Positions 26,998 through 29,852 of a DNA stretch of 64,000 nt are shown here, piece after piece. The notes beneath the pieces are model-generated. The model ran no database searches and was not told where the DNA came from. It saw nothing but the letters and a program-made list of their open reading frames with translations. Within the stretch, counting starts at the first letter, position 1. Each line of letters begins with the position of its first letter. Both the position numbers and the translations under genes were made by a program. Origin of the DNA: Elsinoe ampelina (Eukaryota); NCBI GenBank assembly GCA_010093995.1, contig ML992501.1, positions 138,560-202,559 of the forward strand, given 5' to 3'.

Positions 26998-28143
26998 ATG
27001 TTCGAGTGGCTGTTTGGCAAGTCGTTCAATCCAGACCAAGACATACCAGATCTATCTGGCAAGGTCATTATTGTCACTGGAGGTATGTTTGTTTCATCTC
27101 GTTATATGGATCCCTCTTTACACGTCCAATGGCATCTTGTCTGCCCTCGAGCTATTGGATTCTCCCTAACTCCGTCACTAGGCAACAGTGGTCTGGGTAA
27201 AGAGTCCATCAGACAGTTCGTAAAGCACAAACCGAAGGCTGTGTTCCTTGCTGCTCGGACTGAAGCAAAGGCTCAGAGTGCCATCGAGGAGATCAAGAAG
27301 GAAACACCAGATGCCAACATCCAGTATCTCAATCTTGACCTTGGTGATCTAGACTCCGTGGCAACGGCAGCGAAAGACTTCAACTCCAGAGCTGATAGGC
27401 TGGATATCTTGATGAACAATGCTGGTAGGTCACCTCGATTGCACTCCTTATCAGTACTGCCTCTCTCCATATCAGGCTTGATACTGCAATGTGCTGTGCA
27501 CTATCTTGACCATTTCTAATAACTACCAGGCATGCTAGCCCAAGACTTCTCCCTTACACCCCAAGGCTACGAACTCTCCCTCGGCACCAATCACATGGGC
27601 CACGCGCTTCTCACCAAGCTTCTCCTACCCACCCTCCTCCGCACAGCGGAAGACTCCTCCGCCGACGTCCGCATCGTCAACCTCTCCTCGGTAGGCCACC
27701 ACTTCGCCGCTCTAACCCGCGGCCTGGTCCTCGACGCCCAAGCCTCCGCCAAAGTCTGGAACTGGTCTCGCTACGGCACCAGCAAGCTCGCGAATCTGCT
27801 CCACGCAAGGGCATTGAAGAAGCGCTACCCTCAAATCACAGCAGTAAGCTGCCATCCTGGGACAATCAACACGCAGCTATTCCACGGGGAGAGGGACTGG
27901 TGGGCTGATACGCCCGTGATCGGATTCTTCTTCAGGAACATCCACTATTTCTTGAGCTCGGTGGATTCAGGGGCGAAAAACCAGCTTTGGTGTGCGGTTG
28001 GGCCGAAGGAGGAGGTGAGGAGTGGCTTCTACTTTGAGCCGGTGGGGAAGAGGAGTGGTTGGGGACTGTACACTGGCGAGGCGGAGGCGGAGAGGCTGTG
28101 GGCTTTTACGGAGGAGGAGTTGAGGAAGCAAGGGTATGAGTGA
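26998..28143 (+). CDS. Short-chain dehydrogenase/reductase (retinol dehydrogenase/WWOX-like)
   Basis: VTGG|NSGLG, LMNNAG, NHMGH, YGTSK (YxxxK) and HPG. Introns 27083..27181 and 27425..27529. Confidence 0.92.
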
Positions 28144-28577
28144 GATTGGAAATGACGGTCAAAGATGGGTGTCAAGCAAGATGGAGTGCTGTCGGACAAA
28201 CCTTCTTATATCGATTACCATATTGGTGAACTGCCAGCGACTTGGTATAGGGAACCCCACAAGTTTCTGCAGCAATCGTGAATACTATCTATCTTGTGTC
28301 GAAAGAGGAAGATGTAGAGTGTGAACATGCATGAATAATGGTTGATCTTCCATCAGCCAAGATCTAAGCGAGCCCCACACCTGGCAGAGACGGGTATTCC
28401 CGCATCTGAACTTCTTCGAGTCGGTTTCGATAGGTGCATGCGACATTGCTTGACTTGTTCATAACGCCTGCCCGACGACACTAAAGGTGCAACAGACTGT
28501 CACAATGTTATGAGCCTTTTCTGATCATCTGCAGATATCTACGACTTCTCGTAGCTCATTGCCGTCATACCGCAGCC

Positions 28578-29352
28578 ATGGATCAAGCTAAACTTCAGCG
28601 CATGCAAAATGCTGTGCGCATAGGTGAGTCGACCTATCCAGCACCGAAATCGACCGATTATCGCAGAGCGGGAAGAAATGGAGCTATGGGACTGTACTAA
28701 CACGTTTGCAGGGTAAGATCAATCCCAGACAACCTTCAATTGAGCTATTTCAGCTCCGGCACATCTCAAAGAGAAGACATTGTCACATTCGCTGCGGGCA
28801 ATACGCAACACCATTGCACAAGATGTCAGAGAAGAGAAAGAAAAATGGCTGACATGATTTCTACAACAGTGGCAAGGGAACCCCCCGACGAAAGGTCAAG
28901 AAGGTCCACAAGTCATCCGGCACCGACGACAAGAAGCTCCAGACCACGCTCAAGAAGATGAACGTGCAGCCAATCCAGGCGATAGAGGAGGTCAACATGT
29001 TCAAGTCGGACGGCAACGTCATCCACTTTTCTGCTCCCAAGGGTGAGATTGCTCGGCCTTAAGACAACATCACTCTCACTAACATACGACAGTCCACGCC
29101 TCCGTCCCATCCAACACCTTCGCCGTCTACGGCAACGGAGAGGACAAGGAACTCACCGAGCTTGTCCCCGGTATCCTCAACCAGCTCGGTCCCGACTCAC
29201 TAGCCTCCCTCCGCAAGCTTGCCGAGAGCTACCAGCAGATGCAAAAGGCCCAGGGCGAGGCCGGCGAGGGCGACAAGAAGGATGAAGACGACGATGACAT
29301 TCCGGATCTCGTCGAGGGCCAGAACTTTGAGAAGAGCGGCGAGGTGGAGTAA
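28578..29352 (+). CDS. egd1: Nascent polypeptide-associated complex beta subunit (BTF3)
   Basis: Exons 28578..28623, 28712 (1 nt), 28870..29042 and 29093..29352 give [27 protein letters not shown]...IEEVNMFK...[14 protein letters not shown]...DIPDLVEG. Confidence 0.95.
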
Positions 29353-29852
29353 AGCCTCATAGTTCACAGGAACGATGGCTTGGAATGGGAGAATCATTCT
29401 TGGAGGAACCGAGGCCGCATGGCTGACTTTTATGGTCGGCGAGAAGGGGTGGATGTCGCAATGACTGATGGGAGCATGCATGCCGATGTGACTTCTGTCT
29501 TCAAGTGGCGAACATAGGCAGGACAAAAAGTATGGATCTGTCTTGTGGGTGTGCTATGATTATGTTCTTCCTGTCAACTATCAGTATCAATAAGCAGTGA
29601 ATCGACCTTGATGTCCAAGTCATCGCACATCTTGTGCTGACAATCAGAGACTGGAAAGTTGTCGAAGTGCTTAAGATTGGATTCAACGCTTCTACAAATG
29701 GTCTTTGTTCATTATCTACCATACCTCCTTCCCCACTCCTGCCCGCCGCGCGCCGAGTTGTCAATGGCGCGCACTCAGTCCACTCAGACAGCCACCAGTA
29801 ATGACCGAAGCCCTGTCAAACATGGATGCTACTCCTGCACGTCCCGCTCAAC

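Follow-up and report, generated by a model that had tools for sequence, protein, structure and literature searches.

The NAC-beta gene (EGD1/BTF3) on the + strand of the window, by which we mean the whole stretch of 64,000 nucleotides of Elsinoe ampelina DNA that was analysed, very probably contains a constitutive exon of one nucleotide, the G at position 28712, which lies between two introns that are taken out by two ordered splicing reactions. This reading is carried by the junction observed in the mRNA, by the two sets of splice signals on either side of the base, and by the conservation of these signals that we observe in related loci. Single-nucleotide exons have been published before and are known but rare, and this gene is newly added to them.

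The four-exon gene occupies positions 28578-29352, and all the features described here are on the + strand. Coding exon 1 (28578-28623) begins with the ATG at 28578, encodes 15 residues and the first base of a Gly codon, and ends in phase 1 with ...CGC ATA G. It is followed by intron 1 (28624-28711, 88 nt), which has a GTGAGT donor, an ACTAAC branch motif at 28696-28701 and a CAG acceptor; by the single-nucleotide exon at 28712, whose G takes the second position of the GGT codon for Gly in RIGGKG; and by intron 2 (28713-28869, 157 nt), which has a GTAAGA donor, a GCTGAC branch motif at 28848-28853 and a CAG acceptor. Coding exon 3 (28870-29042) opens T GGC AAG GGA ACC, supplying the third base of the Gly codon and then GKGTPRRK... 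and the NAC domain, and is separated by intron 3 (29043-29092, 50 nt, GTGAGA..CTAAC..CAG) from coding exon 4 (29093-29352), which runs to the stop codon TAA. The 3'UTR extends to at least 29648, and the 5'UTR contains an intron of 48 nt (28487-28534, GT..AG). Around G28712, a canonical acceptor and a canonical donor form the block CAG-G-GTAAGA at 28709-28718, each of the two flanking introns has its own branch site and a viable length, and no other AG-N-GT site exists in the 246-nt interval between exons 1 and 3.

With G28712 included, the CDS is 480 nt long and encodes a NAC-beta of 159 aa. Without it the frame shifts after RI and translation stops after 45 residues at the TGA at 28959-28961, which bears out the claim, made in an earlier sequence-only reading of this DNA, that skipping the G shifts the frame. 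Every coordinate given in that reading proved correct when we re-read the sequence and rebuilt the gene model. Its statement that only G+G+T rebuilds the frame is too strict, as a GT at 28628 is also in frame and adds one Asp. To judge from sequence similarity, the gene belongs to the NAC-beta/EGD1/BTF3 family: Pfam NAC (PF01849) matches the exon-3 peptide (E = 7e-16, 58.3 bits as against a cut-off of 21.3), 902 proteins among 921 candidates were found at E <= 0.001 in a protein database search, and among the 120 matches listed, those that carry a protein name are nearly all NAC subunit beta.

For the mature transcript, we aligned to the window the contigs of four public runs from three studies (X1, X2, X5 and X15, with one contig per run). 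None of the runs is on record as RNA; several are marked 'RNA?', with about half of the sampled words present, like a spliced transcript. The contigs of the 'RNA?' runs are without three or four GT-AG introns, which fits RNA, because DNA would keep its introns. In the contigs of all four runs, position 28623 is joined to 28869, so that 245 bases are skipped of the 246 that lie between the exons, and the mRNA thus keeps exactly one of them. The junction reads ATAG-G-TGGCAAG and gives RIGGKG in each case. The mature mRNA holds exactly one base that is supplied by neither neighbouring exon.

The window and the four contigs show no other differences and no indels, with exon 1 covered free of differences in all four runs and exon 3 covered as well. 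In the same four contigs intron 3 is spliced, with 29041 joined to 29092 (the cut may sit 1 position further, GT..AG), and the X1 contig sets the reach of the 3'UTR given above. The 5'UTR intron is absent from the contigs of X2 and X15, which join 28484 to 28533 (the cut may sit 2 positions further) and both reach further upstream, and the loose end of the X5 contig matches the upstream UTR exon.

Related loci were obtained by scanning metagenome contigs with the exon-3 peptide, which gave 577 pattern matches; tblastn upheld 297 of these, and the 80 best were retained as loci. Together with the window, these comprise 73 genomic sequences with exons 1 and 3 (72 loci and the window), 5 fully spliced sequences and 3 sequences in which exon 1 is not recognisable; a strict exon-1 pattern had left 8 loci without exon 1, and a looser pattern recovered 5 of them. 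The 73 intervals between exons 1 and 3 represent 62 distinct sequences and 55 clusters that share less than 20% of their 11-mers, meaning that the introns themselves are not conserved. In 73 of the 73 genomic loci, exon 1 ends with ...R-I and a G before GT, and exon 3, preceded by YAG, opens on the last base of a Gly codon, so that the one-base mismatch is universal within this set.

Within these otherwise divergent intervals, AGGGT is found in all 62 distinct sequences and in all 55 clusters, as compared with a mean of 6.2 and a maximum of 14 clusters of 55 in 200 dinucleotide-preserving shuffles, and it is the only 5-mer common to all 55 clusters. The sequence-only reading had proposed an alignment across relatives for a conserved AG-G-GT, and this is what the comparison yields: besides the pentamer itself, the full context (AGGGT preceded by CTRAY, with neither sub-intron shorter than 40 nt) occurs in 53 of 55 clusters, against a mean of 0.86 and a maximum of 3 in the shuffles. 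Positions that were not selected on also look like splice sites: C or T precedes the AG (position -3) in every one of the 55 clusters, and in the second donor 53 clusters have +3 A and 54 have +5 G. A CTRAY motif stands 5-27 nt before the 3' end of sub-intron 1 in 53 clusters, and one stands 10-22 nt before that of sub-intron 2 in 54, the lengths being 61-487 nt (median 93) for the first sub-intron and 68-252 nt (median 138) for the second. The internal splice signals are conserved in orthologues, and the intron sequence that surrounds them is not.

Several individual loci depart from the usual layout. In three of them (L024, L051 and L060) sub-intron 1 is enlarged to 475-487 nt, against the median of 93, and the single-nucleotide exon and a second sub-intron of 82 nt are kept. 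In L002, exon 1 is split by an extra short intron (after ...MDHEKLAR), about 330 nt upstream of position 581, and the branch-CAG-G-GTAAG block is still present downstream of the split exon. The same block is present in L078, which ends early on its contig. In L063, which also ends early, no AGGGT was found in the only 168 nt available upstream.

The fully spliced loci agree with the mRNA of the window. At the junction, all five of these cDNA-like loci (L017, L030, L047, L059 and L065) have ATH GGN GGN AAR. Among them, L017 encodes an uninterrupted protein of 157 residues with RIGGKG, which is identical to the Dissoconium aciculare protein P0073 over the length of P0073 save that the latter has RIGIGKG at this place. 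The Ophiobolus disseminans protein P0018, which has RIGGKG, is 99.4% identical to the product of the genomic loci L010, L015 and L039, and all three of these carry the two-intron arrangement. As regards other content of the introns, a search of 28300-29700 against Rfam returned nothing at E <= 1, the branch motif apart no 6- to 8-mer of intron 2 is conserved among the related clusters, and neither sub-intron has a conserved element beyond the splice signals in those clusters. With no Rfam match and no conserved block in intron 2, a snoRNA or other intronic RNA cargo is not supported.

We propose that G28712 would act as a constitutive exon between two complete U2-type GT-AG introns of 88 and 157 nt, each with a full set of donor, branch site and acceptor. 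The same few bases belong both to the acceptor of intron 1 (CAG-G) and to the donor of intron 2 (G-GTAAGA), and because of this overlap two spliceosomes could not act together, so that the introns would have to be removed one after the other. If intron 1 were removed first, ATAG would be joined to the G and the donor ATAGG-GTAAGA would be left, like a recursive splice site that leaves one base; if intron 2 were removed first, the acceptor TTTGCAG-GTGGC would be left for intron 1. Either order would lead to ATA GGT GGC AAG, encoding I-G-G-K. Neither step would change the flanking bases much, so that the sequence offers no clue as to which comes first. The separate and ordered excision of the two introns is, in our view, soundly inferred from this arrangement.

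The sequence-only reading had gone further and suggested that skipping of the G could serve as a switch on NAC levels. According to this idea, a controlled fraction of the transcripts would skip the base, shift frame and be destroyed by NMD, and the dosage of NAC-beta would be tuned in this way. The TGA reached by the skipped form, at 28959-28961, does precede the last exon junction, at 29042, by 81 nt, a geometry that usually triggers NMD, and all 55 clusters have kept the arrangement even though fungi commonly lose introns. Against this, the four contigs include no skipped form, though contigs drop rare variants and cannot show them, and the sub-introns contain neither a conserved element beyond the splice signals nor a match in Rfam. 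The retention of the arrangement can also be explained without a function: removing just one of the two introns needs a precise deletion, and introns near the 5' end are the ones lost least often. We consider a regulatory exon of this kind unlikely, and the switch on NAC levels is an unsupported guess.

A different alternative to the single-nucleotide exon is that one intron of 245 nt with non-canonical ends is removed in a single step, for example with ends TG (UG)..AG through a cut one base inside the GT, or with GT..CA. The joint in the RNA fits four registers (it may lie up to 3 places further on), and if it is read as a single intron the ends are GT..CA, TG..AG, GA..GT or AG..TG. As the retained base is a G, one may always assign it instead to the first donor, as the opening base of its GT, and the RNA sequence alone never excludes such an intron. 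The mature junction predicted by the sequence-only reading, ATAGGTGGCAAG, is present in all four runs, and the prediction was correct to this extent; the same joint is equally compatible with a single non-canonical intron, and finding it is therefore not decisive. Only the conservation of internal signals or splicing intermediates can separate the two readings. As to the latter, a half-spliced form, with one intron gone and the other retained, was found in none of the 4 contigs or 80 loci, a point on the side of the single intron, and contigs drop rare forms.

The conservation of internal signals, by contrast, argues against the single intron, which leaves unexplained why 53-55 of 55 clusters, with the rest of the intron unalignable, should retain a further branch motif, a YAG and a GTRNG donor at a single place. 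Moreover, at 245 nt it would be about five times as long as the gene's other two introns (48 and 50 nt). Nor, to our knowledge, does the U2 spliceosome make constitutive use of the ends of any of the four registers. If the GT-AG rules hold, the single AG-N-GT site of the interval makes the two-intron path through G28712 the only route to the observed mRNA. These points leave the single non-canonical intron very improbable; on that reading the internal block of branch motif, AG, G and GT would have been kept for some other reason, for example as a splicing enhancer or a decoy site. It is well supported that the comparison of related loci settles in favour of the single-nucleotide exon what the RNA joint alone could not, as far as sequence conservation can do so.

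The public gene model of this species has still another structure. The best protein match, P0001, is the NAC subunit beta of Elsinoe ampelina, a Dothideomycete, and is 100% identical over the query; its 160 aa, with RIGDGKG, are letter for letter those of a model with a single GT-AG intron from 28628 to 28869, whose donor GT lies four bases past the strong donor. This model owes its appeal to its exact agreement with P0001 and to one-residue insertions of the same kind in 12 of 60 organism-named homologues. However, in the contigs of all four runs exon 1 ends at 28623-28626 and not at 28627, and the contigs skip 245 nt and not 242. The inserted residues (D, I, N, T, H, E or A) vary between species, most of them correspond to a codon made up of donor positions +3 and +4 and the exon base that follows, and the transcript-like sequences are without the insertion. 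The RNA contigs of the four runs refute the donor at 28628 as the main form; they include no use of this +4 donor, and contigs cannot show that rare forms are absent. We regard the chance that the public model is correct as negligible. An artefact, either a base missing from the assembly or an extra G in the mRNA through RNA editing or polymerase slippage, has nothing in its favour beyond the bare one-base discrepancy and can practically be set aside, given that the same phase mismatch with an internal AGGGT recurs in 72 independent metagenomic loci and that the RNA contigs show no further difference or indel against the window.

The difficulty of modelling the single-nucleotide exon is visible across the family, as the sequence-only reading had anticipated in saying that gene finders miss such exons. 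The junction is correct in only 7 of the 60 organism-named homologues. Among the 53 wrong models, 12 have one spurious extra residue, 4 have one or more residues missing, 17 have longer insertions, and 20 have lost exon 1 or carry a foreign N-terminus. The correct protein is already implicit in some public models, such as P0018. A simple rule would repair models of this gene: the end of exon 1 is in phase 1 and the start of exon 3 in phase 2, and the missing base comes from an internal branch-YAG-G-GTRNG block.

Two public proteins with unusual N-termini were also seen. Upstream of the NAC-beta gene in the window, the ORF at 27523-28143 (+) encodes a short-chain dehydrogenase-like protein that ends ...RLWAFTEEELRKQGYE. 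In the Elsinoe fawcettii protein P0031 (454 aa, with dehydrogenase Pfam domains and NAC), the orthologue of this upstream gene is fused directly to exon 3 of NAC-beta, presumably because exon 1 and the single-nucleotide exon could not be modelled. P0068, listed as a 'NAC subunit beta' from cork oak (Quercus suber), shares 96% identity with the exon-3 peptide, and its N-terminus is unrelated; it has the look of a fungal contig within the plant assembly.

The lineages that carry the arrangement group with three classes of Pezizomycotina, an approximate placement, as the classes of the metagenome loci were assigned by NAC-beta protein similarity alone, which is weak. In the NAC-beta tree, a weak one in which 1 of 83 inner branches is starred, L045, L071, L074 and L076 group with proteins of Chaetothyriales (SH-aLRT 91), and L026, L057, L061, L070 and L073 group with proteins of Parmeliaceae (SH-aLRT 94). 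The remaining loci are not clearly placed, and their nearest named proteins are mostly from Dothideomycetes. By near-full-length identity, L045 is 94.4% identical to a Fonsecaea protein as against at most 89.9% to other classes, while L069 and L073 are 92.5% and 92.8% identical to P0096 of Pseudevernia consocians (Parmeliaceae), with margins of 5.5 and 6.2 points; most of the margins that separate classes are smaller than 6 points, and for 13 of 54 representatives there was no full-cover match. Among the class labels of the named proteins in the tree and in the identity comparison, those of Elsinoe, Alectoria, Fonsecaea, Ascosphaera, Kalaharituber and Dissoconium were confirmed by taxonomy look-up.

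The named gene models that do not fit the expected junction lend independent, indirect support to a wide spread of the single-nucleotide exon. A one-residue insertion is present in models of Dothideomycetes, of Ascosphaera aggregata (Eurotiomycetes) and of Alectoria fallacina (Lecanoromycetes), and the model of Kalaharituber (Pezizomycetes) has a six-residue insertion at the same spot. As every comparable locus that we found has it, the arrangement is inherited and not a quirk of this genome. A stronger proposal would be that this is the oldest and most widely kept single-nucleotide exon known, that it predates the split of Dothideomycetes, Eurotiomycetes and Lecanoromycetes, with an origin that may reach the base of Pezizomycotina as the frame mismatch in the Pezizomycete model suggests, and that it has been kept because the dosage of NAC-beta is set by obligatory splicing in two steps, in which the G is skipped now and then and the skipped transcripts go to NMD. 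Taken as a whole, this strikes us as unlikely.

Among published cases, the nearest is the single-nucleotide exon of the P450 gene CYP621A in Fusarium, which its authors present as the first in a fungal gene and the second overall (Nelson & Syed 2026, PMC12940212). As described there, the two cases are alike in being fungal protein-coding genes in which a conserved motif holds a Gly codon whose middle G is the exon, set within the identical AGGGT pentamer, with a phase-1 exon end facing a phase-2 exon start; in both, comparison and public RNA reads are the support and annotation had missed the exon (PMC12940212). They differ in that the reported CYP621A exon belongs to one genus and to 20-24 genes that are rarely expressed and whose role is unknown (PMC12940212), whereas NAC-beta is a housekeeping, ribosome-associated chaperone subunit and its exon is seen in 55 non-redundant lineages grouping with three classes. 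NAC-beta goes unmentioned in the Results and Discussion of the CYP621A paper (PMC12940212), and our literature search, with most subscription journals outside its reach, found no paper describing the NAC-beta exon.

In Arabidopsis, APC11 is reported to have a constitutive single-nucleotide exon between two GT-AG introns, and here too the public cDNA or annotation was wrong (Guo & Liu 2015, PMC4674806). This is a plant gene and its exon base is an A (A333), so that the junction is free of the ambiguity caused by a G, and the exon was demonstrated experimentally with GFP-fusion constructs (PMC4674806), whereas the NAC-beta exon is supported by RNA contigs and sequence comparison. For another fungus, Coprinopsis cinerea, a long-read annotation based on full-length transcripts lists 13 exons of 1 nt in 13 genes; this species is a basidiomycete, and the part of the report that we cite gives counts, without gene names or conservation (PMC12230235). 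The mechanical problem and its solution are the same in the snoRNA host transcripts of Candida and relatives, in which adjacent introns lie one G apart, zero-length exons also occur, and ordered, nested or recursive splicing regenerates a splice site (Donovan et al. 2016, PMC5033589). Those transcripts are non-coding and their introns carry snoRNAs (PMC5033589), whereas the base in NAC-beta is coding and its introns have no match to an RNA family.

Two further arrangements were considered and rejected as names for the one described here. In ratchet points, the recursive splice sites of Drosophila, AG and GT are juxtaposed and no base is left behind. The NAC-beta gene is not a case of such a zero-length site, as one G lies between the AG and the GT and is retained, although the mechanism would be alike. 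In a stwintron, an inner intron interrupts the donor, the branch site or the acceptor of an outer intron and all of the sequence is discarded (PMC5587772). Recursive sites and the stwintrons of Pezizomycotina share with the present case the stepwise removal of a long stretch at an internal AG-GT. The two introns of NAC-beta are not a stwintron, since the splice signals of each are complete and uninterrupted and the mRNA retains G28712.

What makes the single-nucleotide exon of NAC-beta stand out is its conservation across many lineages, its housekeeping host gene and the scale of the misannotation; the published coding cases are single plant or Fusarium genes. The gene is expressed and of an essential type across a large group of fungi that includes laboratory models, and in these the spliceosome must routinely handle an exon of one nucleotide. 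It would offer a convenient natural system for studying how the removal of adjacent introns is ordered and how a minimal exon escapes skipping. The presence of two introns one base apart, across lineages that group with three classes, bears on the gain of introns beside existing ones, and the persistence of these introns bears on why 5'-proximal introns stay.
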